A DNA stretch of 64,000 nucleotides from Minisyncoccota bacterium (GTDB lineage: Bacteria; Patescibacteriota; Minisyncoccia; UBA6257; 2-01-FULL-56-20), in assembly GCA_041664245.1 (NCBI GenBank), contig JBAYLC010000004.1, positions 16,932-80,931 of the forward strand. The letters run 5' to 3'. Each line of letters begins with the position of its first letter. Positions within the stretch are counted from its first letter, which is position 1. Below the pieces are notes generated by a model. It was not told the origin of the DNA. It did not search any database and saw only the letters and a program-made list of their open reading frames with translations. This document shows, in pieces, positions 3,105 to 59,204 of this stretch. A program made the translations under genes and the position numbers.

Positions 3105-3141
3105 TTTAAAATTACTTTCACCTTTAAAATAACATAACTCC

Positions 3142-3675: not shown

Positions 3676-3714
3676 TTTTTGCTTATTACAATGTACGTGC
3701 CCCGAGACGAGACA

Positions 3715-4743
3715 CTACGGACTCCAGTTCACCGTCACTTCATCAATTCTCGGCGTTAACGCCTGGTCTGGATCTGATTTCAATCTAACCAGATACTTAA
3801 AGTATCTCTTATTAGTGAAATCAGAAACGTTGTCAATCTTCACGCGGTATACTCCCGGCGAGTCAAAAACCGTAGCGTAAGAATTATAATAAGATGAAAT
3901 CGAGCCGTTCGGCCCCAAGAAAATCCACGGTCCGCTCGTTGAATTTGCCGCGGCTAGCTTAAAGCTCACACCAGTAGTAACTGGTAAATTTCCTTTCCAA
4001 ATAATCGAATTTATTTGAACCCCTTTAACTATGCCAGTATCAATAATAGCCGACTCCAGTGTTCCGTATGTTGAAGTTGCAAACCAATCCGTCGCCACTT
4101 TATAATCAGAGCCGTTTAATAAACACTCAGAGGGAGTGCCGCAACTGAAACTAATCCAGCCGGCAATATCATTCCAAGCGTAATTATAAAAATTCGATGG
4201 CGGTTCATCAATCCCAGTTGAAGAAGACGGGTATACGCCCACTCCCCAATAAACCGTAGTAGTTGCATGCTGAATTTCATTCCAAACCGTACTGCTTCCA
4301 GCAAAACTAATCCAACCGATTGCATCATTCCACGCCCAGCCAGAAACATGGCCCCGGCCATCATTTTTAACTCCCCAATTTCCAGCCGGACCAGTGCAAT
4401 TACTAGAACCCCCAGGCGGCAAAGTTGCGCAATTTAAAACAACTTCCCCAATTGAAGAACTCGCCCAGCCCTCTAAGTATTTTGAATGAACAATAACGTT
4501 ATGAGTACTATGAAAATCTATCCAGCCAATTGGACCGCTCCAACCCCAAGAATAATTTGAATTGGAATAAAGAGTGGAAGGGCTATAAAGAGAATTAACT
4601 GTTGGGTGAATATTGGTTCCCGGGTCTGGATTGGCCTTAGTAACCCTAAAACCGGTTACTAAAAAAACCGTCAAAATAACTCCGCCCAAAACAAAAACGC
4701 TGAATATTCCGACTGTTTTATTTCCTTTAAGATACTTTTTCAT
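3715..4743 (-). CDS. Membrane-anchored secreted protein with Trp-rich GWIxF repeats; candidate pilus tip or adhesin subunit
   Basis: N-terminal anchor MKKYLKGNKTVGIFSVFVLGGVILTVFLVTGF. Repeated motifs GWIDFHS, GWAWNDAIGWISFAGSS, YAWNDIAGWISFSCGT, GWSGPIGWIDF. Confidence 0.4.
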   Translation of the reverse strand: MKKYLKGNKTVGIFSVFVLGGVILTVFLVTGFRVTKANPDPGTNIHPTVNSLYSPSTLYSNSNYSWGWSGPIGWIDFHSTHNVIVHSKYLEGWASSSIGEVVLNCATLPPGGSSNCTGPAGNWGVKNDGRGHVSGWAWNDAIGWISFAGSSTVWNEIQHATTTVYWGVGVYPSSSTGIDEPPSNFYNYAWNDIAGWISFSCGTPSECLLNGSDYKVATDWFATSTYGTLESAIIDTGIVKGVQINSIIWKGNLPVTTGVSFKLAAANSTSGPWIFLGPNGSISSYYNSYATVFDSPGVYRVKIDNVSDFTNKRYFKYLVRLKSDPDQALTPRIDEVTVNWSP

Positions 4744-4748
4744 TTATA

Positions 4749-5426
4749 TTAAATTCCTAAAATTTTTATTGAACCGTTGGCATTTGAATAATCAATATTT
4801 GATGAGGTCGAAAAATTATTGGTGCTGGTCGCAACCAATAACTCGTTCGGCCCGCCCGACCAATCCGCTTGGTCAAAAATTTTACTCCGGAAACGAACTA
4901 AAAACGTCTGCAAACTGCTCGTTGTCGCCCCCGACCAGCCGTAAGTAACAGTCAAGCGTCGAATTGATGGATCAAACACCGTAAGGGCGGGGCAAGCGGA
5001 AACCGGATTAGGAGAAATAGTAGTCGTGGCAAAATTACCCAATGCGTTTCGGCAAACTGCCTCAATTTTAAAATATCGCGTGTAAGTTGTGGTGCCGTTT
5101 ATAATTGACTCCGGCCCCGACATCGCTTTAAAAGGAGAAGTACCGGTAGTCATCGTGGTTGCCATATAATAAAAATAATTAGTCGACGTTGCCATAATAT
5201 TATCAAGATTATGCCAGTCGCTTGCCGAAAAAACCTTTACCCTTTCAATCAAATCTAGTCCTAGTCCCACCGCAAACTTTGACTCATTAGCCGTTTTATT
5301 AGTTTTTAGAGTCGGAATAATAATCGCTGCCACCGCCCCGATTAGAAGAACCCCAACTGCTATTGCTATCAAAATCTCAATCAAAGATTGCCCCCGTCGA
5401 CCATAAATTTTAAACTTTTTTTTCAT
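4749..5426 (-). CDS. Minor pilin or pseudopilin
   Basis: Prepilin-type N-terminus KIYGRRGQSLIEILIAIAVGVLLIGAVAAII (Gly cleavage site, Glu5, hydrophobic helix). Confidence 0.55.
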   Translation of the reverse strand: MKKKFKIYGRRGQSLIEILIAIAVGVLLIGAVAAIIIPTLKTNKTANESKFAVGLGLDLIERVKVFSASDWHNLDNIMATSTNYFYYMATTMTTGTSPFKAMSGPESIINGTTTYTRYFKIEAVCRNALGNFATTTISPNPVSACPALTVFDPSIRRLTVTYGWSGATTSSLQTFLVRFRSKIFDQADWSGGPNELLVATSTNNFSTSSNIDYSNANGSIKILGI

Positions 5427-5463
5427 AATTACTGCATTAAAATATCACCTGACGAAACTCTAT

Positions 5464-6735
5464 TTATTGCGCTGTTCCAAAAACAATATTTGATATCGTA
5501 GAAGTATTTCCTGCGTCATCAATCGCTTTGATGGCAAAATAATATCTAGTGCCTATAACAAGACCCGACACAGTCCACGTCTCTGGGCTTCCCGCAATTT
5601 GAGGCAAAGACAAATCCATCTCTCGGGAATAAGAAGACCAATTACTGTCAAGAATTGAAATTGGCGAAGTGGAATACCTTAAATCATAAATCGTGGCGGT
5701 GCCGCTGTTACCATCGTCGCCAGGAGCAATCCAAGTGAGCAAAACCCTACCAGTAGAACCACCGCCTCCAGCTGCGAGTGAGGAGAAAAGTGAAGCAAGT
5801 GAAACATCAGTCTGGGTAGCGGCAAAACCACCAATATCGACATTGAGACTAGCTATCGCAGCTGGCCGAGTGGTATCCAAAGCCAAAGCTTCCGTGGTGG
5901 CCGAAGCCGGAGCTGATTGACCAGAGGCATTTCCTCTAGCATCATAAGCATCAACAGTATAAGTGTAAGTGGTAGATGGACTAAGACCAGAGTTAGAATA
6001 ACCAGGGCTAAAAACAGTAGCGATTGGAACTGGATTGCCATCTCGATAAATCCGATATCCAGCAACGCCGACATTATCGGTCGAGGCCGACCAAGAGAGA
6101 TCGATTCGAGAAGAAGATATAGGAACAGCCAAAAGGTTTGCGGGAATAGTAGGTGAAATATCATCAGGCAAAGGCGGAACATAAGGAGGCGTACTCGAAG
6201 AAGGGGTTGAAAAACTTACCACCCCTATTGGCGAAACCGAAATAGTTGACGAAACATTCGGATTGCTTTTCAGAAAAACCGAAAAAGTGGCCGACGCTGA
6301 AGATCCGACAAGAAATCCTTGAGATGCGGAAAATTTAATAAGAATTTTTTTATACTGCGACAAACAGCTAGAACTAGAATTATTAAAATTAGGGGAGGAA
6401 AAATTAATATTATCAGGCAATGTATATTTATTTTTAGGAGTATTAATATTTAGTTCATCATATAAACCGAAAAATAACTGGCTTGAACTGCAGAACGGAT
6501 TTCCCAACCCAACTTGCCAAGCCCATCCGCTATCCTGAAATTTAGATTTATCTCTTGCTGTATTTAAAAGCGAAACAATTTTTTCAACGGTTGCATTAAA
6601 TTCCTTAAGCTTATTTTGTGGTAAAAGATTTAAAAAAGTCATTCCGATTAAAATCGCCATTATCACCATCACAATAATAAGTTCTATTATTGTAAACCCA
6701 TTTTTATTATTATGTTTTTTAATATTTTTAACCAT
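5464..6735 (-). CDS. Large minor pilin with fibronectin type III domains
   Basis: Prepilin N-terminus KNGFTIIELIIVMVIMAILIG. C-terminal FN3-like segments (PTIPANLLAVPISSSRIDLSWSASTDNVGVAGYRIYRDG; TWIAPGDDGNSGTATIYDLRYS). Start taken at the Met at 6735; the track gives 6780. Confidence 0.6.
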   Translation of the reverse strand: MVKNIKKHNNKNGFTIIELIIVMVIMAILIGMTFLNLLPQNKLKEFNATVEKIVSLLNTARDKSKFQDSGWAWQVGLGNPFCSSSQLFFGLYDELNINTPKNKYTLPDNINFSSPNFNNSSSSCLSQYKKILIKFSASQGFLVGSSASATFSVFLKSNPNVSSTISVSPIGVVSFSTPSSSTPPYVPPLPDDISPTIPANLLAVPISSSRIDLSWSASTDNVGVAGYRIYRDGNPVPIATVFSPGYSNSGLSPSTTYTYTVDAYDARGNASGQSAPASATTEALALDTTRPAAIASLNVDIGGFAATQTDVSLASLFSSLAAGGGGSTGRVLLTWIAPGDDGNSGTATIYDLRYSTSPISILDSNWSSYSREMDLSLPQIAGSPETWTVSGLVIGTRYYFAIKAIDDAGNTSTISNIVFGTAQ

Positions 6736-6812
6736 ATTTATATGTTTAAATTTTTTATTTAAATTTCGTATTGGCATCATTTGATTATTAATAAAAAACT
6801 TTATCTATTTAT

Positions 6813-8024
6813 TTAAGAAAATTGCGCCGTCAATTGATAAATCGGAATTATTATCGAAAGAGCCACCAGCCCCACTAATAACCCCATGAATAAAAGCAAT
6901 ATTGGCTCCAAAAAAGAAACCAGGGATTTTATCGCCGACTCGGCTCTCGAGGCATAAAACTCAGAAAGCGTCTGTAAAAGATCTTCTAAATGTCCGGCCC
7001 TCTCCGATGCCGCAATCAAATTAGTAACCAGCTTCGGGAAAACTGTTTCTTTTCTGAAAGCCTCTCCTATTGTTAACCCTTTTGCCAAACCCTCTTCGCT
7101 GATTCGAAGCAAACTCGCCCGAAATTCAAGAACATTTACCGTCTCTGCTGCTATATTGAGCGATTGTATAATCGAAAGTCCCGCCTTCATCAACGAACTG
7201 GTTGTCGTTGCAAAACGTTGCACCGCCAACTCCCGATAAACCGTTTTGACTAAAGGTAATCGGCTAAACATTCGCTGGGCCAATTTCCGCCCCACATCGA
7301 ATTTCCAAAAAAACACTGCCGAAAAAACCACAATAATAATCAGGCCCGGAATAAATAGAAGCGCATGAGCATTTATAAAAAGCCCGATCCCAAACACCAC
7401 CCTTGAGAAAAGCGGCGGATTAATTCCTCCATCGGAAAAAACTTTCGCTATCTTAGGAAGTGCGAAAGTTACCAAAAAAATAAATATTGACATTGACGTC
7501 ACGAGCAAGATGACCGGATAGACCAGCGCCGATCGGATGCTATTCCGCAACGCTGCTTCCCTGCCAAGCGACACGCTTAATTCCTCAAATGTTTGCTGTA
7601 AATTTCCTGATGCCTCTGCGGCTTTAACTAAATTTATAAACACTGGCGAAAAAATTCTTGGATACCTTGCGAAAGCCGCATAAAATGGCTGGCCCCGCCC
7701 CAAATTGTCCCGAACCTCAAGTAAAAAGTTTTTCAGGGCTGGTTTATCAAAGTCAGAAATCAAAATATTTATTGCTGAAAGCAAATCAGTTCCCACTCGT
7801 AACATCAAAGAAAGATACCGAGTCAAAAAAATCTTGTCGGTTAAATTAATATTCCCAAAAATCCGCCGTGCCCCAAAACCCTCAGATTCTTTAATCGGCT
7901 TTACCGAAATCGGCCTCAGTTCTTTACCGGCTAGATATTGGAGAGCCTGAGTGAAATCATCGACTTCCAAATCCCCCTCGCTAATTTTTCCGCTTTTATC
8001 CGTTGCTAAATAATGAAAGAGCAT
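6813..8024 (-). CDS. pilC: Type IV pilus platform protein PilC (GspF family)
   Basis: 403 aa polytopic protein with duplicated GspF-type domains, located between the pilin genes and the PilB ATPase. Confidence 0.8.
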   Translation of the reverse strand: MLFHYLATDKSGKISEGDLEVDDFTQALQYLAGKELRPISVKPIKESEGFGARRIFGNINLTDKIFLTRYLSLMLRVGTDLLSAINILISDFDKPALKNFLLEVRDNLGRGQPFYAAFARYPRIFSPVFINLVKAAEASGNLQQTFEELSVSLGREAALRNSIRSALVYPVILLVTSMSIFIFLVTFALPKIAKVFSDGGINPPLFSRVVFGIGLFINAHALLFIPGLIIIVVFSAVFFWKFDVGRKLAQRMFSRLPLVKTVYRELAVQRFATTTSSLMKAGLSIIQSLNIAAETVNVLEFRASLLRISEEGLAKGLTIGEAFRKETVFPKLVTNLIAASERAGHLEDLLQTLSEFYASRAESAIKSLVSFLEPILLLFMGLLVGLVALSIIIPIYQLTAQFS

Positions 8025-8140
8025 AATAAAAAATCACCAATTCAAACAATTAATTCGAACCAACTCTTCTTAATTATAAACTTTTCTATAAAACTAGTCA
8101 CTAAAACATCCCCAAAGGGTAAATAGTAAAATTCTCAAAG

Positions 8141-9856
8141 CTATTCCCTAATGACCCGCAAAACCTCATCAATAGTGGTCATTGCTAATTCAACTTTTTT
8201 TAGTCCGTCCTCAAACATCGAAATCATTCCGTTTTCTCTGGCAACTTTGTGCAATTTTTCCAAATTAAAATCCGGGCTAATTATGGTTTTTTTCACCTCC
8301 TCACCAACATCTAAAACTTCATATATTCCCAGCCGTCCTCGATACCCGGTCATCCCACAACTTGAACATCCTTTTCCATGAAAAAAGTTTTTTGGTAGCT
8401 TAACCTTATTTGGGTCAAGATTTAGTTGTTCTAGTTGATTCATAATCACCTTGGTAATCTCTGGACTCGGCTCGTAAGAATATATACAGGCCTGGCAAAC
8501 CCTCCGCACTAAACGTTGGGCAATAATAACATTCAAAACCGAAACCACTAGAAAAGGCGGCACTTCTAAGTCAAAAAGTCGGGGTACCACCGTTGGCGCA
8601 TCGTTAGTGTGAAGTGAGGAAAGAAGTAAGTGGCCAGTCAAAGCCGCCTGCACTGCAATTCCCGCCGTCTCCGCGTCTCTAATCTCACCAACCATTATAA
8701 TATTCGGATCTTGCCTTAAAATTGCCCTGAGACCGGAAGCAAAAGTTATCCCCGCCTGAGTATTTATCTGGGTTTGATTAACATATCGCATATTGTATTC
8801 CACCGGATCTTCGACGGTAACTATATTCACCGTCGGTCTGTTTAAAATATCCATCATTGCGTAGAGCGTTGTTGATTTTCCTGATCCCGTTGGCCCGCAG
8901 CACAAAACCATTCCGTAAGCTTTCTTTAAGTTGTCGGCGACAATTTTCTCCATATCCGGAAACATTCCGATCTCGGTAAGCGATAGTGGTTTTTGAGCCG
9001 CCTCAAGAAGCCTCATCACAATTTTCTCTCCATAAAATGTTGGCAAAACCGAGACCCGAACATCTATCACCTGGCTGCCGACCTGATAATGAAAACGTCC
9101 GTCTTGTGGTTTATAATGTTCGTCAATCTTTAACCCAGACAAAATTTTAATTCTTGCCGTGAGAGCCGCGTGAATCGCTTTCGGCATCCGCATTATTTCA
9201 AAAAGAATTCCATCAATCCGATAGCGCACAATCGTTACATCTTCCATAATTTCCATATGAACATCCGACGCTCGCGAAGCAATCGCATACGACATCAAGT
9301 TGTCCACGATCGAAACTATCGGCAGAAGCGAGGCAGACTCCTCAACACTCTTTGCCTGTCCTCTCAGTGATTCCTGAACATTATTTTCAATTAATTTCTT
9401 AAAATCTTGCGCCGACTGTGAACCGTAAATAGAAAATCCCTTATTCAAATCACTACCCGTGGCAAAAAAGGGATTTATTTTTGCGTTCAAATGCTGGGAA
9501 AGAAATTTAATTGTCTCTAAATCGCTAGGATCGCTCATTGCCACATCGAAACTTCCGTCTGGCTCTTTCTTAAAAACAATAACTTCCCGCTGCCTAGCAG
9601 CACCCTCTTCGAGTAGCTTAATCGCATCCTTGTCTATCCCCTGAACCTCAAGGTTAGCCAAAGAAACCCCCAGCATCTCCGCTAAAAGATTATTCAAATA
9701 ACTTACTTCAACAATTTTTAGAGATATCAAAGAATCAAGCAATCCTTGATTTTTTCTTCTTGAATCTTCGTAGATGGTGTCGAATCGCTCGGCCGTAATC
9801 AAACCCTCCTGCACTAATCTGTTTTTCAACTGGGGAACTGGTATTGGTATTCTCAT
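8141..9856 (-). CDS. pilB: Type IV pilus assembly ATPase PilB (GspE family)
   Basis: Walker A GPTGSGKST, Asp and His boxes, tetracysteine motif (CQAC...CSSCGMTGYRGR), N-terminal GspII-like domain. Confidence 0.9.
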   Translation of the reverse strand: MRIPIPVPQLKNRLVQEGLITAERFDTIYEDSRRKNQGLLDSLISLKIVEVSYLNNLLAEMLGVSLANLEVQGIDKDAIKLLEEGAARQREVIVFKKEPDGSFDVAMSDPSDLETIKFLSQHLNAKINPFFATGSDLNKGFSIYGSQSAQDFKKLIENNVQESLRGQAKSVEESASLLPIVSIVDNLMSYAIASRASDVHMEIMEDVTIVRYRIDGILFEIMRMPKAIHAALTARIKILSGLKIDEHYKPQDGRFHYQVGSQVIDVRVSVLPTFYGEKIVMRLLEAAQKPLSLTEIGMFPDMEKIVADNLKKAYGMVLCCGPTGSGKSTTLYAMMDILNRPTVNIVTVEDPVEYNMRYVNQTQINTQAGITFASGLRAILRQDPNIIMVGEIRDAETAGIAVQAALTGHLLLSSLHTNDAPTVVPRLFDLEVPPFLVVSVLNVIIAQRLVRRVCQACIYSYEPSPEITKVIMNQLEQLNLDPNKVKLPKNFFHGKGCSSCGMTGYRGRLGIYEVLDVGEEVKKTIISPDFNLEKLHKVARENGMISMFEDGLKKVELAMTTIDEVLRVIRE

Positions 9857-9871
9857 AAAATTATTTAAAAA

Positions 9872-10543
9872 TTACTTTCCCAAAAAAAGTCCGATAAAAT
9901 CTCCCAGAGATAATTGCCCCCAAACATATTCCAATCCAAAAATCGGAAGCAACCAAATCTTTACTATGATAGCAAAAATTGCTATCGGCAACCAAAAATA
10001 AAAAAGCGGCAGCCGTCCCTTGGAAAAAATCGTGTAGACCACGGAAAACAAAACTCCAAAAATCAGAATAGCCGCCCAAAAAAACAAAAATCCCGGATAC
10101 CCTGAGAGAAAAGTCCCGAGCGCGATAAGTTCAACTTCTTCGTTTTCAAAAAATCTATTACCAAATCTTTTATTCAAAAATTTCGCCAACCGGCTTACTA
10201 AAATAGAAGCCAGAAAAGCGACTATCCAAAAAATAAAAAAATGGACAAATACATATGACAAAAAATAAGAGATCGGGGCATAAGGCGGCAAAAGGCCTCT
10301 GCTAAGCGGATTACTCTCCCAAACTTGATACTGCTTGTAAGATATATAAACATTAACTGCTACCACAATCACAAACAAAATCAACCACAAAATCTTTAAA
10401 TACTTCTTTACCGTTTCTCGGGAAAATTTTCCTTCTCTTTTTGAGTCCAAAAATCGCCGGCCCCAAAAAATCTGTGCCGCAAAAAGCAAAATCAAAGCCA
10501 CTAAATTAAAATATTGAGCTACTGCAAACATTCTCAAAATCAA
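9872..10543 (-). CDS. pilD: Prepilin peptidase (A24 family)
   Basis: 223 aa polytopic membrane protein immediately downstream of pilA and adjacent to pilB. Size and position are typical of PilD; the assignment rests on context and topology. Confidence 0.65.
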   Translation of the reverse strand: MILRMFAVAQYFNLVALILLFAAQIFWGRRFLDSKREGKFSRETVKKYLKILWLILFVIVVAVNVYISYKQYQVWESNPLSRGLLPPYAPISYFLSYVFVHFFIFWIVAFLASILVSRLAKFLNKRFGNRFFENEEVELIALGTFLSGYPGFLFFWAAILIFGVLFSVVYTIFSKGRLPLFYFWLPIAIFAIIVKIWLLPIFGLEYVWGQLSLGDFIGLFLGK

Positions 10544-25588: not shown

Positions 25589-28500
25589 CTAAGAACCAGC
25601 TGCGTAAGAACCAGAGAACAACTGAATCGGAATACCCACGCCAGCGATTCTTACATTAACCGTACCGCCAGATTCCGCCGTAGTGTAAGTAGCATCAGTC
25701 ACCGCATTAAGGATTGCTGAAAGTCCTTGAGCCACACCGCTTACAGCAACGGCTGTATTGCTCAAAGTATTAGCCCTAAGCGTAAATGTCTTTGTAGTAC
25801 CAGCGCTGACAATATAGTTATTGAAGTCAAACGAAACTGAAGTTGTGGTAGTTGCAGACTGAGTCACATTAGTGCCGGCAGTCGGATTAAACAACGTAAA
25901 TGTGGCAGGTAACGAAAGGCTATTAGCCGAACCGCCAATAGTAACCACAAATGACTGAAGTTTAACCGATCCAAGTGGGTCCGCCGTGAAGCTAATAGTG
26001 GCCAACTCATCAGTTGTAGCCTTAGCTCTACCAGACGTAACTCCAATCGGAGTCGCCGATACTGTAAGTTTACCTCTCACAATCGTCTGAGCATTACCAG
26101 TCGCAGCAGTGAGAGTAACCGTCGAACTGTTATTCGAGGTACTACCACGAGCCACCACTACTTCTGCCGCTGTATCAAGAAGCGGGTCAGTAGAAGTTGA
26201 CGCAGCAAGCTTAAACACATGAGTAGTGTTGTCAGACGCACCGCTCGAGCTATAGTCAGACACATCGCCCTTCAGAACCAAGGTAATTGATCCAGATTTC
26301 GGAACTACGATCGGATTCTGGAAACTAAACAGGCGGTAATAACCCACACCAGCCACATCTGAGCCCTCGGTATTGTTGCTTGTTGTCGGTTCGCCACCCG
26401 TAGCCAACAATGTATTCAAATCCCTTGAATCGTACAACTTCAAACTAGCAAAGGAAGCCTTAACCGAAGGAGAAGCAACCGTCTGGAAAAGATAAAGTTG
26501 AGAAACCTTTATATCTTCAATATTGGTTGTTTCGGAGAAACGGTAAGCGGCCAAGGTATTTCCAGTTGAACCCATCACAATCTGGTTAGCTGACGGAGCA
26601 GTGGAGTCCAATGTAACAGTCAATGTTGACTGTCCAGCCACAACCACACTTTGTCCGGTTCTTGCTGTGCAAGAAACCGCAGCATAGGTCGTCGCGCCAG
26701 ATCCCGTGCAACTCGCAAGTGTTGTAGCCGCCGTATGTGTACCAGCCACCGCAGATGAAAGTATATCAACATAAACATCCACTATCTTTGTTTGTCCAGC
26801 TGGAATATTTAGTTGACCGGTAAAATTATAGGTAGCAGCCGATAAAGTCGGTTGAACTGTCCCAAATTGAGTATTACCAACCATCAGCTTAAGGTTTTGG
26901 CTGCTAGTCGTAAGGCCACCCAATGTAACCCCAATACTCATGAGGTTCACCCCTTCCGCCGTTGAAGCCGCTATTGAGTAAGAACCAATTTTAGCGTTAG
27001 TTGTGCCAGCTGAATACGTTTGAGTTCCTACTGCGCTATTTCTAGCTGTAGTAGCTGAGCTAGTAACTCTAGTTAACACGCTGCCAGTTGCCGCGCCGCT
27101 TGATGCCGTCGCGCTTGATGTCTGGCCACGCAAGTTGCTTGACCCAGTCAACACCTTTGCCACAATCGTCGTGAAATCAGCTGTGGTTTGGATATCTCCT
27201 CGTAAGGTAAGCACCCGAGTTGTATTCGCCGGAACAATGTAGCTAATCGGAGAAGAACTCTTACCAAAACAATTTGTAGCCGTTGAAGATGCATAAGTTG
27301 CAGCACTATCAGTACAATCCACTGCTAACACTGTCGCCAAATTGGAAATTGTGCTCCCAACTTGAAAACCAGCATCATCAACTAAACTAACGTTCTTGAT
27401 TTGGCTATTTACTCCGAGAGTCGCTCCCGTGAAAGTCAAAGAAAATCCGAGCCACTGAACCTTAACTGGTTCGCCAGCCGCATAAATCTTGTATTTCAAG
27501 AGAGGTGTTGCCGATCCGCCGGCAACAATATTCCCAGTCGGTGTATCAGAAGCCAAAGTGGTTGTAAGTTGTCCAGGTTGAATAGTCACCTGCATTGAAC
27601 TTGCCGAACCGCCGTTGATAGTCACCGAAACCGGTACTCCATACTGGCTATCAACTCCCCAAACATCATACGAGTTCAAGAGGTTGAAAGTGAAATTGTA
27701 GTTTGGACTACCCGCAATGTCGGCGTAGACTTGCAAATTGCTGTTTCCGGTAGAAATAACCGCCGGAGCAGAACTGAAATCAAAAAACGCCACTCCATCA
27801 GCCGGAACCATCGCTAAGGTTTGGCCAACTTGAGTACCGTTCACAAAAAGCTTCACATTCTTAATGTCGCTCTTTGTCGCCGAACCAGTCACTTTAAAAG
27901 TAATTCCTTTAAGGTTAACTGGACTGTTCGTAGCTGTAATCGTCCACTGCGAAATCATTTGATTCTGATCGCCAGCATAAACTGATGTCTGCGGTGTACC
28001 CGAAGACACAGTTAAACTCGCAATTGACGGATTTGAGACCGTAGTCGCTGTGAAAACATTTCCACTCAAGGGAAAAGCCCCCACTGGAGTAACAGCCACG
28101 TTATTGCTGTCAACTGCCGTTATATCGGTAACCGCCATCAAACCAAAAGAGATAGTGTTTCCATCCGTAACTGTTCCTGGGTCAATAGCTAATTCAACAT
28201 TCCTGGTCTGACCGGCATTAATGCCTAATCCCAAACCATTGAATGTAATCACGCCACCAGAAAGCGAACTATACTGGGCGATTACCTTACCGTTTTCGAT
28301 TAGGTATGCCGCAGAAATACCACTATCCGAAACTATACCCAACTTCTTGAATTTCAAGTCGTTGACTGTAATTCCGCCAGCATTGCCAGCTGTAAGAGCA
28401 ACTCCTAAAACAGGCAATCGCGCCGAGGAAGCAATGAAAGAACTAACTGCAGGATTCTTCGAAGAGAGTCCTACTGAAAGACCAGAAACCGGAACCGGAT

Positions 28501-28942
28501 TTGGATTCGGGTTAGGATTTGGATTCGGATTTACTCCCATCGCGTTAACAAAAGCGCGAGTCTTTGGACCAAAATAACCAGCCGCCGGAGCGATTCCGTT
28601 GGCTGCTTGGAATTTACCCAAAGCCGCTTTTGTCATTGAACCGAAATAAGCAGTCGGAGCAGTAATATTCAAATACCCTCCTGTGATTAAGAACTGCTGA
28701 AGTGAAGTTACGTCGGCACCTCTGCTTCCAAGGGTGAGGTCCTTAGTGAAGCTGTAGGAACCAGTAACTGGAGTGCCTCCTTGAGCAGTCGCCAACTGAG
28801 CATTAAGCGCTTGAATTTGCGCCATAAGCGAATTAATCATCGCTTGAAGCTCAGCTGTTGTCTGTCCATGAGCCACTGGTGTGACGCCTGCGATAACCAT
28901 CGCAAAAAGCGCCAATGAAACTAATTTTTTTCCTATATTCAT
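25589..28942 (-). CDS. Large secreted cell-surface protein: signal peptide, peptidoglycan-binding domain, (PN)n linker, long beta-rich Ig-like repeat region
   Basis: Signal peptide MNIGKKLVSLALFAMVIAGVTPVAHG. PG_binding_1-like segment (GSRGADVTSLQQFLITGGYL...GSMTKAALGKFQAANGIAPAAGYFGPKTRAFV). NPNPNPNPNPNPVPVSG linker. Roughly 900 aa that is S/T/A/G/V-rich with no Cys. Confidence 0.6.
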   Translation of the reverse strand: MNIGKKLVSLALFAMVIAGVTPVAHGQTTAELQAMINSLMAQIQALNAQLATAQGGTPVTGSYSFTKDLTLGSRGADVTSLQQFLITGGYLNITAPTAYFGSMTKAALGKFQAANGIAPAAGYFGPKTRAFVNAMGVNPNPNPNPNPNPVPVSGLSVGLSSKNPAVSSFIASSARLPVLGVALTAGNAGGITVNDLKFKKLGIVSDSGISAAYLIENGKVIAQYSSLSGGVITFNGLGLGINAGQTRNVELAIDPGTVTDGNTISFGLMAVTDITAVDSNNVAVTPVGAFPLSGNVFTATTVSNPSIASLTVSSGTPQTSVYAGDQNQMISQWTITATNSPVNLKGITFKVTGSATKSDIKNVKLFVNGTQVGQTLAMVPADGVAFFDFSSAPAVISTGNSNLQVYADIAGSPNYNFTFNLLNSYDVWGVDSQYGVPVSVTINGGSASSMQVTIQPGQLTTTLASDTPTGNIVAGGSATPLLKYKIYAAGEPVKVQWLGFSLTFTGATLGVNSQIKNVSLVDDAGFQVGSTISNLATVLAVDCTDSAATYASSTATNCFGKSSSPISYIVPANTTRVLTLRGDIQTTADFTTIVAKVLTGSSNLRGQTSSATASSGAATGSVLTRVTSSATTARNSAVGTQTYSAGTTNAKIGSYSIAASTAEGVNLMSIGVTLGGLTTSSQNLKLMVGNTQFGTVQPTLSAATYNFTGQLNIPAGQTKIVDVYVDILSSAVAGTHTAATTLASCTGSGATTYAAVSCTARTGQSVVVAGQSTLTVTLDSTAPSANQIVMGSTGNTLAAYRFSETTNIEDIKVSQLYLFQTVASPSVKASFASLKLYDSRDLNTLLATGGEPTTSNNTEGSDVAGVGYYRLFSFQNPIVVPKSGSITLVLKGDVSDYSSSGASDNTTHVFKLAASTSTDPLLDTAAEVVVARGSTSNNSSTVTLTAATGNAQTIVRGKLTVSATPIGVTSGRAKATTDELATISFTADPLGSVKLQSFVVTIGGSANSLSLPATFTLFNPTAGTNVTQSATTTTSVSFDFNNYIVSAGTTKTFTLRANTLSNTAVAVSGVAQGLSAILNAVTDATYTTAESGGTVNVRIAGVGIPIQLFSGSYAAGS

Positions 28943-53136: not shown

Positions 53137-53215
53137 ATATCCATAAACTTCAATAGTGTTAATTGAGGTTTTAGCAATTTGAAAATTGAAAATAATCATA
53201 GAAAGAGAGAAAAAA

Positions 53216-53821
53216 ATGCCTACTATTAGTTTCCAACCGAACCCAGGAAATTCGAGGTTGAGTTTGGATCTAACCGAACCAAACAAGACCGAAGAATTAT
53301 GGGAAATCACCGTCACTGCTATTGTTTCCGACGATGGCAAGCCGGCACCAGGAATACAAGTTCAGCTCTACCATAATGGTCGAGCTATCGATTCTCCCTA
53401 TCTCACCGATGGAGAAGGAAGAACCGAGCCAAGAACCTTTTCTGATCTTGAAAAAGGTACTCACACCTTTGAAGCCATAATAGTCAGCACGAGCATTAAG
53501 GCTCGCCGAACTGTTAAACTCAAAGATGAAAGGCCAAAAAAACCGGCAAAGCTCATCGTCGATAGAGAATATGCGGGAGGCAGCAATGATAAGGTAATTG
53601 TCTTCTGCACCGTCTTAACCGACGATAACGTTCCGGTTAAAGGAATCGATATCAGAATCCTTGGGCTAACTAACCCGACATTAGCGACAACCGACAAAAG
53701 CGGCGTCGCCACCATGAAGATTAAACTGGAGAAAAATCACCGTGTGGTCGTCTTCATAGTAAAAGGAAGTCCAATTCAAAAAAGAATCCATCTATTCAGA
53801 AAGACAGGAAAAACATCATGA
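53216..53821 (+). CDS. Protein with two prealbumin-like (CarboxypepD_reg / Cna-B-like) beta-sandwich domains
   Basis: VTAIVSDDGKPAPGIQVQLYHNGRAIDSPYLTDGEGRTEPRTF and VIVFCTVLTDDNVPVKGIDIRILGLTNPTLATTDKSGVATMKI fit the D..G.P..G..V.L...TD..G motif. The track ORF begins at a TTG (53186); the ATG at 53216 is preferred. The stop overlaps the next gene's start. Confidence 0.4.
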   Translation: MPTISFQPNPGNSRLSLDLTEPNKTEELWEITVTAIVSDDGKPAPGIQVQLYHNGRAIDSPYLTDGEGRTEPRTFSDLEKGTHTFEAIIVSTSIKARRTVKLKDERPKKPAKLIVDREYAGGSNDKVIVFCTVLTDDNVPVKGIDIRILGLTNPTLATTDKSGVATMKIKLEKNHRVVVFIVKGSPIQKRIHLFRKTGKTS

Positions 53822-55323
53822 GTGTTAAATCATTTTTTGTTGGTTTGGCTGGCGATCTAGGCCTTGATTTCTTGGTCCATTCATGGCTGACCAAGCATGG
53901 GGCCGATGCCTTCCAGCATGTCGTTGAAAAGGTCACCGACGATGTTCGTGTCGAAGTGCTTTCTTACATCCAAAGTCTTCCCGACGAAGAAGCCAGAAAA
54001 AACTGGTGGAGACGTTACAAAAAGACAAATAGAAGTGGAGAGCCAATCGATACTGAAAATCGATTTATGAACCTTGCTTCGCGGATCTACCTTGCTCTTA
54101 AAGATGATCCCGATGAGCTTGAGGGGATGTTCATCCTTCTCGGCCGAATGAGCGATAATGATTTTGAAGAGTCGCTGAAAGCCGTCGAAAACGACAGCGT
54201 CAAAGTTTTCTTCAAAAAAGTGGGCGAAGCCTTCAAAAAATTCGCCCAACCAATCACCGACTCCCTAAACTCTCTCAGTACTAATCTGAAAAAAAGAAAC
54301 AACTCCAACAGAAGGAGAAAAGGCTACAAATACCAACGTAGCCGCAAGCCAGCATCAGGACTTTTCGGTTCTATTTTGGAAACAATCCGAGAAATCGGCC
54401 GGGAAATAATTTACGATGCGGCCGAACTCTCCCATCTTACCACTTGGGTATCGCGTCATGATCGCTCGGCCTTAGAAGTCTACCTCCGTAATCTAGCGGT
54501 AATCGCCGGCTTCATCATTCTTTTCCCGTTTGTCCCATTGATTATTAGAACATTGGGCGGACCGGGATGGATAGTTTCTTTTGCCGGGCTTTTCCTCGCC
54601 CTGTGTACATTTTGGTTGGCTCTAATAGCTACCCCATTAGCGATTGTGCTAGGCGCAATCCAACACGGCATTAAGGGTACCGTATCCTTGATTAAAGACG
54701 GCCCGGGAGACCTGGGGAAACGGTATGTACATTTTGTACTATGGTTCTTCTTGATTGAAACCTTCGCCTTTTTGAGCCTTTCGATCATCCCAATCTATAA
54801 CAATCCAAAACTCGTCCCGATTATTCTGTTGGCGGTGTTGGTCATTGTTACTGTCAACCTGATATTGGGAGTTGGAAACTGGTTCAAGAAATTTGCCCGG
54901 TTTTCATCGGTAGCCGTAGTCATTATCCTTATTCTCTCTCTCGTTTTTCCCCAAACAACCAATAGTCTTCTAAAGATCGAGGTTGACAAAGGAATAGCCG
55001 AGACCGTAGATACTATGAGAAATTCCTCAATCACCTCTACCGCCCAAGCTGCCCCCATCCCAAAGATAAAGAAAGTGGTGGCTAAAGCGAATCAGTGGTC
55101 GGACAAAGTTACCAATGACGATGTCCCGGCCAACTGGGAGCGTTGGATCTATTCCTCCGAAAAAACTCTAATTCGTTTTTCGGATGGGACAATCGGTCCC
55201 GCGCTAGGCAGTTATGGAGTAAGACCAGGTGCTGTTGATTTTATGTGTCCCACAGGAGAGGACACTGTAACAGTCCTGTTTCTTCAGAAAGGCATTGCCC
55301 CGCCTTCGGAAGCACCTAAATAA
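53818..55323 (+). CDS. 501 aa polytopic membrane protein with a cytoplasmic N-terminal domain and an extracytoplasmic C-terminal domain; unknown family
   Basis: About 200 aa charged N-terminal domain, a cluster of about 6 TM helices (450-900 nt into the ORF), and a C-terminal soluble domain. Translationally coupled to the upstream gene. Confidence 0.45.
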   Translation: MSVKSFFVGLAGDLGLDFLVHSWLTKHGADAFQHVVEKVTDDVRVEVLSYIQSLPDEEARKNWWRRYKKTNRSGEPIDTENRFMNLASRIYLALKDDPDELEGMFILLGRMSDNDFEESLKAVENDSVKVFFKKVGEAFKKFAQPITDSLNSLSTNLKKRNNSNRRRKGYKYQRSRKPASGLFGSILETIREIGREIIYDAAELSHLTTWVSRHDRSALEVYLRNLAVIAGFIILFPFVPLIIRTLGGPGWIVSFAGLFLALCTFWLALIATPLAIVLGAIQHGIKGTVSLIKDGPGDLGKRYVHFVLWFFLIETFAFLSLSIIPIYNNPKLVPIILLAVLVIVTVNLILGVGNWFKKFARFSSVAVVIILILSLVFPQTTNSLLKIEVDKGIAETVDTMRNSSITSTAQAAPIPKIKKVVAKANQWSDKVTNDDVPANWERWIYSSEKTLIRFSDGTIGPALGSYGVRPGAVDFMCPTGEDTVTVLFLQKGIAPPSEAPK

Positions 55324-55344: not shown

Positions 55345-55392
55345 ACCAAAAACCCCTGGAGAAACTTCTCTCCAGGGGTCTTTTTTTATTTT
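55345..55392. terminator. Bidirectional intrinsic terminator between convergent genes
   Basis: CCCCTGGAGA-aacttc-TCTCCAGGGG perfect 10-bp stem, flanked by aaaaa on the left and tctttttttatttt on the right. Confidence 0.75.
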
Positions 55393-55923: not shown

Positions 55924-56328
55924 CTATTGTCCGCTAAGACCAGTGCCAACAAGCTTCGGAATACCATAAGCCATAAGTCCAATAACAATCGCAATTACGG
56001 CGTACAAAAGAGTGTGGCTCGCTTTCTTCACTTTTTCCGGATCGCCAGCCGCCGTAAGATAAAGAAACGCTGCCCAAAAGATAAACAAAATTGCCGCTAT
56101 CCAGAATATTCTTGCCACCCAAGTAAGAATGGTTCCAAACCAATCGATTGCTCCTCCAACGCTGCTCGGTCCGGGCGTCGTGCCAATGGGCGGATTAACT
56201 TGGGTTATATCCTGAGCCATCACTGCCACCGGTCCGGCAAAAATAACCATCAAAAAGATTATCGCGCCTACCTTTAATAAATTTTTCTGCATTATTCCTA
56301 TTTTTTCTTTCTTAATATACTTCCACAA
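55924..56328 (-). CDS. VirB2/TrbC-like secretion-pilin-type small membrane protein, paralog 2
   Basis: Signal peptide (MQKNLLKVGAIIFLMVIFAGPVAVMA), then ILTWVARIFWIAAILFIFWAAFLYLTAAGDPEKVKKASHTLLYAVIAIVIGLMAYGI. Confidence 0.45.
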   Translation of the reverse strand: MWKYIKKEKIGIMQKNLLKVGAIIFLMVIFAGPVAVMAQDITQVNPPIGTTPGPSSVGGAIDWFGTILTWVARIFWIAAILFIFWAAFLYLTAAGDPEKVKKASHTLLYAVIAIVIGLMAYGIPKLVGTGLSGQ

Positions 56329-56394: not shown

Positions 56395-56835
56395 TCAACC
56401 CGTGCATTGCAGATTAAAAATACTGCAAACAATTGGCACCACCCCGCCGGCAATAAGTACTACCGCGAATCCAATCACCGCGTAAAGCAGGGTTTTTTTG
56501 CCACTTTTGAACTTCTCTGGGTTCCCAGCAGCTGTAAGTATTTGAAAAGCACCTATTATCACCATTATTCCCGTGAGTGGCACCGCGATCCAGAAAAGCG
56601 TGTTCATAATATTTTTAAACACGCAAGAAAAATTTGTGCAACCAATTGGGGTCGTTAGATTTATTGTAACGCTCCCCCCGGGCCCAGTATTACTATTCCC
56701 GGGGCCACCAGTATTACTGTTTCCTTGCGCCCAAACAGTCGTATAAAAACTCAAAACCACTACCACGCTTAGCACCAAACAAATACTTAATAAAACTTTT
56801 TTCATATTTCTAAAAATTATTTTCAACTTTACCAA
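56395..56835 (-). CDS. VirB2/TrbC-like secretion-pilin-type small membrane protein, paralog 1 (more divergent)
   Basis: Signal peptide (MKKVLLSICLVLSVVVVLSFYTTVWA), Cys pair (CTNFSC), then LFWIAVPLTGIMVIIGAFQILTAAGNPEKFKSGKKTLLYAVIGFAVVLIAGGV. Start possibly at the Met at 56805. Confidence 0.45.
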   Translation of the reverse strand: MVKLKIIFRNMKKVLLSICLVLSVVVVLSFYTTVWAQGNSNTGGPGNSNTGPGGSVTINLTTPIGCTNFSCVFKNIMNTLFWIAVPLTGIMVIIGAFQILTAAGNPEKFKSGKKTLLYAVIGFAVVLIAGGVVPIVCSIFNLQCTG

Positions 56836-56856: not shown

Positions 56857-57894
56857 CTAACCCCCTGTTTGGCAATTATACAAATGTCCCCAACAAAGAT
56901 GCCAATGATCAACTTCCCAATAATAATTCACTCCGTCGTTGCCCGTATACCAAGTATTCGGAACCGGAGTGCTTAAACCGATTTGAGAATACACGTAATT
57001 ATTAACGGACGGAGTGTTATCTATATCCACTCTGGCCTTTCCTGGTCCGTGGGTATTATGACCCACCTCCGTTCCGCCCGTCACAATTAAATCGCAACTC
57101 GGGCAAGCGTTTTTAATCGCCTTAAGTCCGTCAACTGCCGACCATGGCAATCCCAGCAAACTCGTACAACTAGGATTACTGATATCATTACAATTACCGC
57201 TACTATGGATTTTGATCCCCGCCGCCGTAAGTATCGCTCTAATCGTTGCGTCATCATTACCAGTCCCTCCAGGCAACTGCCCTGTTCCCGTTGCATTATT
57301 TCCCGTGCCGTTATTTCCAGTACCATTATTCCCCGTGCCATTATTTCCGGTGCCCGCCCCACCTAAACCACCGCTCCCCATCGGCGGCGGGGTACAAACA
57401 ACCGTTCCCCAACCGATCTTTCCTTGCCCCTGCCCAGCAAAAAGACCCAAACCCCAAATAAATGTATTAATAATTAAAAATGAACCTACACCAAGCGCCG
57501 CTCCAATAATCGCTCCAGTCAAAATTTTCTTTCCTCGCGATATCCCCGCTGGTGATCCCTTTTTCCCGCCCTCTAAAATAGTTGACGCTCCGCCACTTGT
57601 TAAAATTGTGAGTCCTCCCCACATCACCATGATCGGCACAATAATAAAAAGAAGAATGGTAAGCGCGAAATAAACCACTCTTTGCCCCAAATCCATCAAG
57701 TCGCATAAGCTCTGGCAAGATTGCTCTTGGCACTGCGGCGGCACCAAACCGTCAGTTGCCCAAAATCCGGCCGGCCAAAGAGAAACCTCTCCGTGCGCCA
57801 CTTGCGGCACTATCAAAAAAACCAGGAAAAAAATTCCGGTGAGCACTAAAGGAAAAAACTTCCAAAATTTTCCCATTAATATAAATTGTAGCAC
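56857..57894 (-). CDS. Fusion protein: N-terminal secretion-pilin-like domain, (GTGNN)4 linker, C-terminal Cys-rich LAS-type (M15/M23-like) Zn-peptidase-like domain; putative peptidoglycan hydrolase
   Basis: N-terminal signal plus helix-loop-helix (VVYFALTILLFIIVPIMVMWGGLTILTSGG...GKKILTGAIIGAALGVGSFLII). GTGNNGTGNNGTGNNGTGNNATGTG linker encoded by 15-bp tandem repeats (57280..57345). C-terminal HNTHGPGKARVDID and EVDHWH motifs, reminiscent of the HxxGxAxD and HxH zinc ligands, plus Cys pairs. Confidence 0.45.
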   Translation of the reverse strand: MLQFILMGKFWKFFPLVLTGIFFLVFLIVPQVAHGEVSLWPAGFWATDGLVPPQCQEQSCQSLCDLMDLGQRVVYFALTILLFIIVPIMVMWGGLTILTSGGASTILEGGKKGSPAGISRGKKILTGAIIGAALGVGSFLIINTFIWGLGLFAGQGQGKIGWGTVVCTPPPMGSGGLGGAGTGNNGTGNNGTGNNGTGNNATGTGQLPGGTGNDDATIRAILTAAGIKIHSSGNCNDISNPSCTSLLGLPWSAVDGLKAIKNACPSCDLIVTGGTEVGHNTHGPGKARVDIDNTPSVNNYVYSQIGLSTPVPNTWYTGNDGVNYYWEVDHWHLCWGHLYNCQTGG

Positions 57895-57896
57895 AT

Positions 57897-59204
57897 TTAA
57901 CTGCCCAACCTCGCCGCTTTCATCACCGCATTGATCTGATCCTGCGCCTGGCCCAAAGCCCTAAAAGAATCCGTTTGCCCCATTAGGACATTCGCAATCG
58001 CTCCTGAAAAAATATTTTTTATCTGCCGGTCATCGGCTTGCGCCCAAGAACGGGCAATGAGGGCTTGGCGGGCAAAAATTCCGATATCCGGATCATTTTT
58101 TTTCTCGTCAATAATTGATTTCAAAGCTGGCGACCGATTAGTGCCGCTAAGATAATCATGGGAAACCGCCGGCGTTGTGGCCAGATAAATAATAAAATCC
58201 CAAGCCGCCGCCGGCGCCCGGCTCTGTTTAGAAACAGTCAGTCCTCTATAGTTAGCATAAGCAATCGATCTTTCCGCTCCCGTCGGTTGGGGCGCCGCCG
58301 CGGCCGCAAAATTAAGAAATGGATTTTTATTCTTCACTAAATTAAACGTGCTTTGATATCCGAAAATCATCGCCGTTCCCTCGCTCGAAAAACTATCAAT
58401 CGCGTTTGGCTGGGTGTCACCCCATGTATAAAACTGGGAATAAGGATTAGCAAAGCTTAAATAAAAATTAAAAGCCGCCATCCCTTTCCCGTTCTTTCCA
58501 CCATCAGAAAAAACCGCCGCGTATCCCTTTTGGTCTAACATCTCGGTGCCATTTTGGAGCATAAGTAAATTTAGTAAATCCACTGCTCCCGGAATAGTTT
58601 TTTCTGACCCCCCAATTGCCGCGCCGGCTATTTTAATCCGGTCGCCGCTCTCAATTTTTCTAAGCGCCGCCACGTCCGATTGAAACTCATCCCAAGTTTT
58701 CGGCGGATAAACAATTCCTGCCTGGTCAAAAAAATCCTTGTTATATAGAAGCGAAAGCGTATCGATATAAAGCGGCAAAGCCCATATTCTTCCGTCTTGA
58801 ACAAAATCCTGCTCCACCACTTGCGGAAAATCCGATCTTAGCTGGGTCAGCAAATACTGTGTCGCCGCCGCTGGTTGCATTTTATTTTTTTGCCTTGCCA
58901 CCGATCGATTACCAACCATAAAGATATCCGGCCCAGTCCCGGCCGCTAACGCGTCAATAAGCAGGCTATCATAGTTAGTCTCGCTCACTTTTTGATACTT
59001 AACTTTTATGCCGGTGCGAGATTTTTGGTAGGATTCAATGGCTTTATCAAAAACCGGCTTATCATCAAAACCCCACATCAAAAGATTGGCCGGCGGCAAA
59101 ACCGGTCCGTTCTGGCGCAAATTAGAAAAAACAACTATCAGCAAAACAATGATAAAAATAAAAACTCCTCCAATAATCAAAACTTGTTTTTTCGAAAACT
59201 TCAT
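57897..59204 (-). CDS. ABC transporter extracellular solute-binding protein (family 1, sugar-type)
   Basis: N-terminal membrane anchor/signal, about 430 aa periplasmic binding-protein fold (WGFDDKP...LPLYIDTLSLLYNKDFF). Confidence 0.65.
   Translation of the reverse strand: MKFSKKQVLIIGGVFIFIIVLLIVVFSNLRQNGPVLPPANLLMWGFDDKPVFDKAIESYQKSRTGIKVKYQKVSETNYDSLLIDALAAGTGPDIFMVGNRSVARQKNKMQPAAATQYLLTQLRSDFPQVVEQDFVQDGRIWALPLYIDTLSLLYNKDFFDQAGIVYPPKTWDEFQSDVAALRKIESGDRIKIAGAAIGGSEKTIPGAVDLLNLLMLQNGTEMLDQKGYAAVFSDGGKNGKGMAAFNFYLSFANPYSQFYTWGDTQPNAIDSFSSEGTAMIFGYQSTFNLVKNKNPFLNFAAAAAPQPTGAERSIAYANYRGLTVSKQSRAPAAAWDFIIYLATTPAVSHDYLSGTNRSPALKSIIDEKKNDPDIGIFARQALIARSWAQADDRQIKNIFSGAIANVLMGQTDSFRALGQAQDQINAVMKAARLGS

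Follow-up and report, generated by a model that had tools for sequence, protein, structure and literature searches.

What could a gene that joins a small pilin to a peptidase-like domain do in the genome of an ultra-small bacterium of the Paceibacteria, which belong to the Candidate Phyla Radiation (CPR)? Such a gene lies on the minus strand of a 64,000-nucleotide stretch (hereafter the window) of contig JBAYLC010000004.1, as the first of a four-gene pilin array. The encoded protein, here called the fusion protein, starts with a signal peptide and a VirB2-like pilin core of two helices, which a disordered linker rich in Gly, Asn, and Thr connects to a Cys-rich C-terminal domain (C-domain) of 135 residues. 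It is very probable that a metal site of the LAS fold is fused here to a VirB2-like pilin. For the full mechanism, namely that this pilin-anchored LAS peptidase opens the cell's own wall for a type IV secretion system (T4SS) or pilus, we estimate a probability of about 0.5. As the first-pass annotation of this DNA had supposed, no earlier description of the fusion was found in the searchable literature, outside of which most papers in subscription journals lie.

In the list of open reading frames (ORFs), the gene occupies exactly 56857-57894 and encodes 345 residues from a GTG at 57894, with the stop codon at 56857-56859. The ATG at 57876 is the more likely start, giving 339 residues; an identical protein (P0001/P0165) from a 272-kb contig of a Candidatus Paceibacterota metagenome-assembled genome is annotated by NCBI from this ATG as a hypothetical protein. 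The A-H-G site of the cleavage type in the signal peptide was read directly off the sequence. A full-length AlphaFold model had a predicted local distance difference test (pLDDT) score of 76, with the folded C-domain at its end. Positions in the C-domain are converted to positions in the 345-residue ORF by adding 210. The features of the gene are as follows.

57790..57876, minus: signal peptide, residues 1-29 of the 339-residue form (MGKFWKFF...VAHG, followed by EV after the cleavage site); hydrophobic stretch 3-33, helix 4-27 in the model
57433..57708, minus: VirB2-like pilin core, residues about 57-148, a two-helix hydrophobic hairpin with the basic loop GGKKGSPAGISRGKK
57265..57432, minus: predicted extracytoplasmic flexible linker, residues about 149-204, rich in Gly, Asn, Thr, and Pro
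57295..57354, minus: four 15-bp units encoding (GTGNN)4; array 57285-57354 by Tandem Repeats Finder (TRF)
56860..57264, minus: C-terminal LAS / hedgehog-DD-peptidase-like domain of 135 residues, of a family without annotation in Pfam, NCBIfam, and PHROGs
57025..57069, minus: motif TGGT-E66-x-G-H69-x-x-H72-GPGKARV-D80, with the His codon at 57049-57051 and the Asp codon at 57025-57027
56899..56916, minus: motif E117-V-D-H120-W-H122, from column statistics of 140 representatives

The C-terminal domain and its family

With the whole protein as the query, a word-indexed search returned 24 homologues, which were two-module proteins of the CPR (several with PF18895) and actinobacterial proteins carrying the same C-domain after two PG_binding_1 domains. 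When a profile was built from 21 C-domains, 2,539 cluster representatives (50% identity) were matched at E up to 1e-3 and 1,619 at E up to 1e-10; against the word-indexed database, the same profile matched 1,314 entries. The best matches were stand-alone "hypothetical" proteins of about 165 residues from Streptomyces, Micromonospora, and other Actinobacteria, and further matches were found in Deinococcus, Planctomycetes, and Verrucomicrobia. Most members of the family are free-standing secreted proteins of Actinobacteria. None of the profile matches listed had a precomputed Pfam match, and the library matches of P0019 were confined to its PG_binding region.

Conservation was counted over the 140 best family representatives, which are clusters at 50% identity or less. 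C25, C33, E66, H69, H72, D80, and H120 were invariant in all 140, and S21, G23, T34, S35, T62-T65, G68, and G75 were conserved in at least 95%, while E117 was found in 77%. Position 122 was Asp in 94 representatives, His in 45, and Asn in one. The first-pass annotation had read HNTHGPGKARVDID and EVDHWH as zinc-binding motifs; both are present in the C-domain and conserved in the homologues, with H72, D80, and H120 of the proposed metal-binding and catalytic residues invariant. Its count of four Cys pairs was too high. Ten Cys residues occur in the whole protein, at ORF positions 235, 243, 264, 267, 334, and 341 in the C-domain and at 55, 60, 64, and 167 in the pilin part, so the six of the C-domain allow three pairs.

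The C-domain is a member of the LAS / Hh-DD-peptidase superfamily (clan MD) by predicted fold and motif. Its model has the hallmark of the LAS fold, a central sheet of antiparallel beta-strands with helices against one face, and the LAS/hedgehog-type structure that had been expected was indeed predicted. The closest structural match was the hedgehog N-domain, with LysB4, LdcB, VanXY, Ply500, and T5 endolysin lower in the list. The order of the secondary structure elements is that of ShhN, namely a strand (LIVT), a loop with H69 and H72, a strand with D80, a helix, two strands, and the HxH strand; H120-W-H122 opens strand 121-125 and supplies the H-x-H element. Within the superfamily, this family forms an unannotated LAS-fold branch, in which the loop VTGGTExGH...H..G...D resembles hedgehog more than M15. 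The resemblance to M15 and M23 peptidases pointed out earlier is thus borne out for M15, M74, and hedgehog, and not for M23. Peptidase M23 was ruled out on motif spacing (H-x3-D in M23) and fold. Peptidase M15, M74, and HH_signal were also rejected as Pfam sequence families, because the hidden Markov models (HMMs) of these families gave no match and the profile search of the PDB was empty. LAS-clan Pfam models as a whole matched neither the 21 C-domains at E up to 10 nor the 140 full proteins at E up to 0.01.

The C-domain profile of 140 sequences was then aligned by hhalign with the single sequences of ShhN and 1lbu, which are identical to the PDB entries. The segment VTGG-TEVGHN----THGPGKARVDI was aligned with the stretch of Shh containing H140 and D147 (pairwise P 0.007), placing H72/D80 on Shh H140/D147 and, in the second alignment (pairwise P 0.05), on H154/D161 of 1lbu. 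When the alignments were extended, a part with low confidence, H120/H122 fell on H180/H182 of Shh and H195/H197 of 1lbu, and E117 on H192 of 1lbu. In LAS enzymes, as reportedly described by Bochtler et al. in 2004, it is the second His of HxH that binds the metal, while the first acts in catalysis. These roles agree with the invariance of H120 and with the ligand-type His or Asp at position 122. H-x6-D together with H-x-H is the defining motif of DD-peptidases and LAS proteins (PMC6027127). This H-x6-D spacing was found in 96 of the 140 representatives, whereas the H72-x7-D80 of the window protein is one residue longer.

The fusion of this domain to a pilin is recurrent. Among the 140 representatives, 57 match PF18895 and three match TrbC; about 43% are pilin fusions, and a local pilin HMM finds 62. 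The two kinds of active site are unevenly distributed between fusions and other members. H-x7-D with HxH was found in 42 of the 62 pilin fusions versus two of the 78 non-fusions, whereas H-x6-D with H-x-D was found in 75 of the 78 non-fusions, which are stand-alone and actinobacterial, and in 19 pilin fusions. These two subtypes suggest several fusion events or later specialisation. Other partners in the same set were PG_binding_1/3 (three representatives) and SLT, 3D, WXG100, and Peptidase_C39 (one each). PG_binding_1, SLT, and 3D are cell-wall modules, and the non-pilin partners are mostly of this kind. A Pfam scan of ten long non-pilin members for new architectures found only Peptidase_C39 (P0097).

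Two further observations concern the distribution of the family. In one member a WXG100 domain (type VII secretion) is N-terminal, which hints at use as a secreted antibacterial effector. Two eukaryote-labelled sequences, P0252 (Folsomia candida LOC110856663, from a springtail genome) and P0283 (a eukprot transcript), match the bacterial C-domain profile at E about 1e-35, a sign of either contamination or horizontal gene transfer to a soil arthropod.

The pilin module, the linker, and the neighbouring array

The N-terminal module was compared with the three adjacent small pilins by hhalign, using as the query an alignment of the N-terminal 170 residues of the fusion protein with nine homologues. 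The match had a probability of 97% and an E-value of 1.1e-10 and spanned the first transmembrane helix, the loop, and the second transmembrane helix; the loop of the fusion protein has an insertion of 11 residues relative to the adjacent pilins. The homology to the three neighbours that had been read from their layout was thereby confirmed, and these three pass the gathering score of PF18895. Their position had been given as upstream; they are adjacent and on the same strand, but in the sense of transcription they lie downstream, at lower plus-strand coordinates. The fusion protein itself had no match to PF18895 at E up to 1 and no Pfam or NCBIfam match whatever, whereas its homologues P0004, P0005, P0007, and P0008 match PF18895. 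By profile-profile comparison, the module is a divergent PF18895 / VirB2-like member, though below the Pfam threshold. The three neighbouring pilin genes are listed below.

56395..56835, likely start ATG 56805, minus: pilin paralogue 1, PF18895 E 9e-10, 38.9 bits (cut-off 26.6)
55924..56328, likely start ATG 56292, minus: pilin paralogue 2, PF18895 E 6e-8, 33.1 bits
55401..55841, likely start ATG 55841 (mechanical ORF to 55994), minus: pilin paralogue 3, PF18895 E 2.6e-6, 27.8 bits

Pilin 2 also matches NCBIfam NF045849 (pilin-like conjugal transfer protein), under the cut-off of that model.

The layout of PF18895 proteins, in which a short basic loop joins two long hydrophobic helices behind a signal peptide, was also found in the fusion protein. 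Hydropathy analysis gave hydrophobic stretches at 3-33, 60-96, and 117-148, and the AlphaFold model has the two helices of the pilin core at 57-94 and 109-146 with pLDDT 80-95. The loop between the helices contains five Lys/Arg residues, and the mature N-terminus has no Lys/Arg and five acidic residues. According to the positive-inside rule, an established principle of membrane topology, the basic loop is predicted to be cytoplasmic. Both ends of the hairpin, and hence the linker and the C-domain, would then be outside the cytoplasm. This location agrees with the Cys content.

The linker contains the peptide GTGNNGTGNNGTGNNGTGNN at ORF residues 181-200 (window 57295-57354). The repeat had been described as a perfect tandem 15-bp repeat. 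This holds for the peptide, (GTGNN)4, but not for the DNA; TRF gave a period of 15, 4.7 copies, and 80% matches, and the four units GGCACCGGAAATAAT, GGCACGGGGAATAAT, GGTACTGGAAATAAC, and GGCACGGGAAATAAT differ at synonymous third positions. Such synonymous divergence speaks against very recent slippage. In the AlphaFold model, residues 163-205 had a pLDDT below 50, and the linkers of homologues are of low complexity, non-homologous, and of differing length. The suggestion that the repeat is a site of length variation is in line with one comparison: a 94%-identical relative (P0166) has GTGNN three times followed by GTGTG, whereas the window protein has GTGNN four times followed by ATGTG, which amounts to an indel of five residues.

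Pilins 1 and 3 also bear short low-complexity stretches of Gly, Asn, Ser, and Thr, with a composition resembling that of the linker. In pilin 1 a low-complexity stretch, GNSNTGGPGNSNTGPGG, is found at the mature N-terminus, with QGNSNTGGPGNSNTGPGGS directly after the signal peptide, and pilin 3 has a Gly-rich C-terminal tail that finishes in SGDSGGTPGGGGTPYGDYNVLGDING. Extensions of other kinds occur elsewhere in the CPR. P0010 (388 residues, Candidatus Parcubacteria) has a pilin N-module of the same type with 37% identity to that of the fusion protein; its C-terminal part is completely different, being a long region rich in Cys and in Lys, Thr, and Gly that lacks a LAS domain. In P0006 and P0012, Cys-rich repeats precede the pilin module. 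From these layouts, the VirB2-like pilins of the CPR seem to serve as modular scaffolds for extracellular domains of several kinds.

Genomic context and proposed function

Ten distinct fusion loci, the window included, were compared. The order solute-binding protein (SBP) gene, fusion, pilin array was found in four of them (the window, L005, L007, and L011), and in three others the fusion lies in a virB4 cluster. In L003, the genes are TrbL_3, PrgI, TraC-like, VirB4, three unknown genes, and the fusion, with dnaA adjoining; in L006, the fusion, PrgI, TraC-like, VirB4, and a pilin, near dnaA; in L010, TraC-like, VirB4, two unknown genes, the fusion, one unknown gene, and three pilins. Among the precomputed Pfam matches of the genes listed for these three clusters, there was no hydrolase family. 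In L008 the fusion adjoins yidC, rnpA, and dnaA, with the contig end close by. In L001 and L009 it is flanked by ribonucleotide reductase on one side and Wzy-type genes on the other, and there are no pilins in the vicinity. Because the fusion recurs beside secretion-system genes in related genomes, it is a candidate for the wall-cutting enzyme that these systems seemed to lack.

In the proposed mechanism, Sec export and cleavage of the signal peptide would leave a membrane hairpin whose basic loop faces the cytoplasm and whose two ends lie outside it, where the disordered linker of about 55 residues would tether the LAS-fold domain, presumably stabilised by disulfides. The C-domain most likely binds one Zn2+ via H72, D80, and H122 (Asp in most relatives). 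The invariant H120, with E117, E66, and H69, would hydrolyse a peptide or amide bond of peptidoglycan, E66 and H69 being candidate catalytic or second-shell residues. The pilin module may dock the enzyme at the base of a VirB2-like pilus or co-assemble with it. The fusion protein would then be the wall-opening component of a patescibacterial T4SS or pilus and a functional analogue of VirB1, PrgK, and CwlT. The first-pass idea of a pilin-tethered peptidoglycan hydrolase that would act where the pilus or channel is assembled is essentially supported by the architecture, the residue conservation, and the links to cell-wall modules and T4SS genes, its enzymatic activity and site of action being predictions.

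Several points weigh against this mechanism. The virB4, virD4, and other T4SS machinery genes were looked for and none was found within the 64-kb window, where the neighbours of the fusion are housekeeping genes (gyrA and the SBP gene). No Pfam, NCBIfam, or PHROGs model matched the C-domain, whether the whole protein, the C-domain alone, or the 21 and 140 homologues were used. Searches of PDB sequences with the single C-domain sequence and with the profile found nothing, and neither did a Foldseek search of the C-domain against the PDB (E above 0.5), from which the fold relationship to LAS structures must be distant. Despite the consistent alignment of the ligands, the hhalign probability was low, 5% for Shh and 1% for 1lbu, and the window protein carries H-x7-D in place of the canonical H-x6-D. 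Hedgehog is an example of a LAS fold that serves as a ligand and not as an enzyme. Finally, to our knowledge, pilus formation by PF18895 proteins in the CPR has not been established; in its accessible part, a FEMS review credits patescibacterial VirB2-like proteins only with the "potential to elaborate conjugative pili".

Three other explanations must be weighed. The protein could be directed at a host: as a minor pilin in or capping a VirB2-type pilus, or reaching out on its linker, it would cut the wall of a host or prey cell at the site of epibiont contact. We regard this as possible, though not probable. In its favour, the linker is disordered and of considerable and variable length, and a C-terminal graft would be exposed, given that both ends of the hairpin are predicted to be extracytoplasmic. 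Specialisation is suggested by the H-x7-D/HxH subtype, which is nearly confined to pilin fusions (42 of 44), and one family member is joined to WXG100, an export module of the type VII secretion system. In Candidatus Southlakia epibionticum, the one patescibacterium tested by transposon sequencing (Tn-seq), epibiotic growth requires both the T4SS and its VirB2-like pilin array (PMC10633639), and the sequence diversity of pilin arrays is read as host adaptation in PMC12102498. However, there is no evidence for VirB2-like pili in the CPR or that filament packing tolerates a graft of 135 residues, an immunity-like gene is not apparent next to the fusion, and archaea, which lack murein, may be among the hosts of Paceibacteria. 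Computation cannot separate the producer's own wall from that of a host as the target. A more specific version, in which a minor pilin in or at the tip of a T4SS pilus carries the zinc peptidase on a stalk of variable length so that the epibiont drills through the host wall, is rather doubtful. If true, such an enzyme-bearing pilus would account for the scarcity of VirB1 in most T4SS loci of the CPR and for how these wall-less-metabolism parasites breach their hosts, and the conserved upstream SBP might capture the released muropeptides.

The fusion protein might also be a housekeeping peptidase, in which the pilin-derived hairpin is a mere membrane anchor and the enzyme trims the cell's own peptidoglycan in growth or division with no tie to a T4SS. 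The window gene, with gyrA and the SBP gene beside it and no virB4 within 64 kb, the surroundings of the fusion in L001 and L009, and the many free-standing secreted family members of Actinobacteria are consistent with such a role. Still, it is unlikely: pilin genes or virB4 lie within a few genes of the fusion in seven of the ten loci, an eighth (L008) adjoins the dnaA region, which is the usual site of these T4SS clusters, and the anchor is always a complete pilin module, not a simple transmembrane helix, common to about 43% of the best 140 representatives. Least favoured is a non-catalytic module, that is, a binding or adhesin pseudo-peptidase, which would bind a stem peptide of peptidoglycan or a ligand on the host surface and leave it uncleaved. 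Although the best structural match is the hedgehog N-domain, from a protein that acts as a ligand, and the spacing of the first motif in the subfamily of the window protein is non-canonical (H-x7-D), pseudo-enzymes usually lose residues, as in Drosophila Hh with H-x6-T and H-x-Y (PMC6027127). None of E66, H69, H72, D80, and H120 varies in the 140 representatives, and the residue at position 122 is in every case metal-binding or polar. Since the candidate catalytic residues are never lost, this explanation is quite improbable.

The SBP genes upstream of the fusion are as follows.

57897..59204, minus: gene for a membrane-anchored SBP_bac_1 solute-binding protein, Pfam E 3.6e-27, with its stop codon 21 nt before the ATG of the fusion
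L005 8537-9976, L007 5046-6356, and L011 1473-2780: SBP_bac_1 genes upstream of the fusion in relatives

The gap between the SBP gene and the fusion was 7, 21, and 24 nt in three loci and 63 nt in L011. This linkage is kept in four genomes whose fusion proteins share just 33-54% identity; the SBPs are orthologous (46% and 32% identity), and gyrA comes shortly before the SBP gene in three of the four loci. No ABC permease or ATPase gene adjoins the SBP gene. The SBP may be part of the functional module of the fusion, for example by capturing released wall fragments.

At the other end of the array, a GC-rich hairpin with an 11-bp stem (ACCCCTGGAGA...TCTCCAGGGGT) followed by a T-run was found at 55352-55379, between the end of the last pilin gene (55401, minus) and a convergent gene for a membrane protein of 501 residues (53818-55323, plus). 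It is probably the terminator that closes the pilin array. When the minus strand was scanned from gyrA to the pilins, the stems listed were all short ones of five pairs, none comparable to this hairpin, and gyrA, the SBP gene, the fusion, and the pilins may therefore be one transcription unit. The convergent neighbours are a pair of overlapping genes, of which the first (53186-53821, plus) encodes a Big_1/MG-domain (Ig-like) protein and the second the 501-residue multi-pass membrane protein, for which there was no family match. Farther away, the window contains a separate type IV pilus cluster at about 3100-9900 (minus), with a T2SSE/PilB ATPase (8141-9856) and an N_methyl pilin with an fn3 domain (5464-6780). 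A protein of 1,117 residues with a PG_binding_1 domain (25589-28942, minus) represents, like this cluster, further envelope and surface machinery of this small genome.

Comparison with known systems

The LAS superfamily, including ShhN, bacterial Hh-like domains, the Zn D-Ala-D-Ala carboxypeptidase of S. albus (1lbu, M15A), VanX/VanY (M15), and MepA (M74), has the same order of active-site elements as the C-domain: a His...Asp motif on a loop and strand, a later H-x-H strand, and an acidic or His residue three positions before HxH, where E117 corresponds to H192 of 1lbu and to the ExxH of VanX. The predicted extracytoplasmic location and, as in 1lbu, the association with PG_binding_1 are also similar. 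The C-domain differs in having no sequence-level match to the LAS families of Pfam, NCBIfam, or the PDB, in the H-x7-D of the window protein, in the Asp that most family members have as the putative third ligand, in the invariant disulfide-type pair C25/C33, and in the pilin as its N-terminal partner. M15 has an SxHxxGxAxD context and an Arg where the C-domain family has the invariant TGGTE-x-GH, and the hhalign alignment and column statistics show no conserved equivalent for most of the acidic residues that bind Ca in Shh. With about 2,500 clusters at 50% identity, the family adds a branch to the hedgehog/DD-peptidase superfamily.

The VirB2-like arrays of Patescibacteria (Quinonero-Coronel et al. 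2025, PMC12102498; Wang et al. 2023, PMC10633639) are, in the available text of these papers, tandem sets of 2-11 divergent genes; the window has four, including the fusion, and the relatives of the fusion are near virB4 and dnaA, as are these arrays. The accessible part of PMC12102498 also describes the T4SS as origin-proximal and VirB1 as scarce in Patescibacteria, with most genomes that have VirB2 lacking a detectable VirB1. As described there, these arrays consist of small pilins only, and the biogenesis of VirB2 seemingly does not need VirB1. In the accessible parts of PMC12102498, PMC10633639, and PMC12857230, there was no mention of a pilin with an enzymatic domain. The recurrent fusion of a pilin and a peptidase could be the missing VirB1-type hydrolase or a device for cutting host walls.

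VirB1 in diderms and PrgK, TraG(pIP501), CwlT, and TcpG in monoderms have the same proposed job, the local opening of peptidoglycan for the channel, and the relatives of the fusion are likewise encoded within or beside T4SS genes. The monoderm hydrolases are tethered to the membrane by an N-terminal hydrophobic segment, which is a further likeness. Whereas these enzymes use SLT/lysozyme-like, CHAP/NlpC-P60, or M23 domains, the fusion protein uses a LAS-fold domain, and Pfam gave no SLT, CHAP, or NlpC match in it; a complete VirB2-like pilin as the anchor was not found described for any T4SS hydrolase. The relation to VirB1-type hydrolases would therefore be one of functional analogy only, not of family membership, as no domain is common to them. 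What is new is a candidate T4SS-associated wall hydrolase whose putative catalytic domain comes from an unannotated LAS family and whose anchor is a pilin module. The concept of a pilin scaffold that displays a C-terminal globular module is also known from type IV pilins with grafted modules, such as PilB and PilC of Streptococcus sanguinis. Those pilins, however, are unrelated proteins with the class III signal peptide of type IV pili in place of a VirB2-type hairpin, and their grafts are adhesive, whereas the module carried by the fusion protein is predicted to be hydrolytic.

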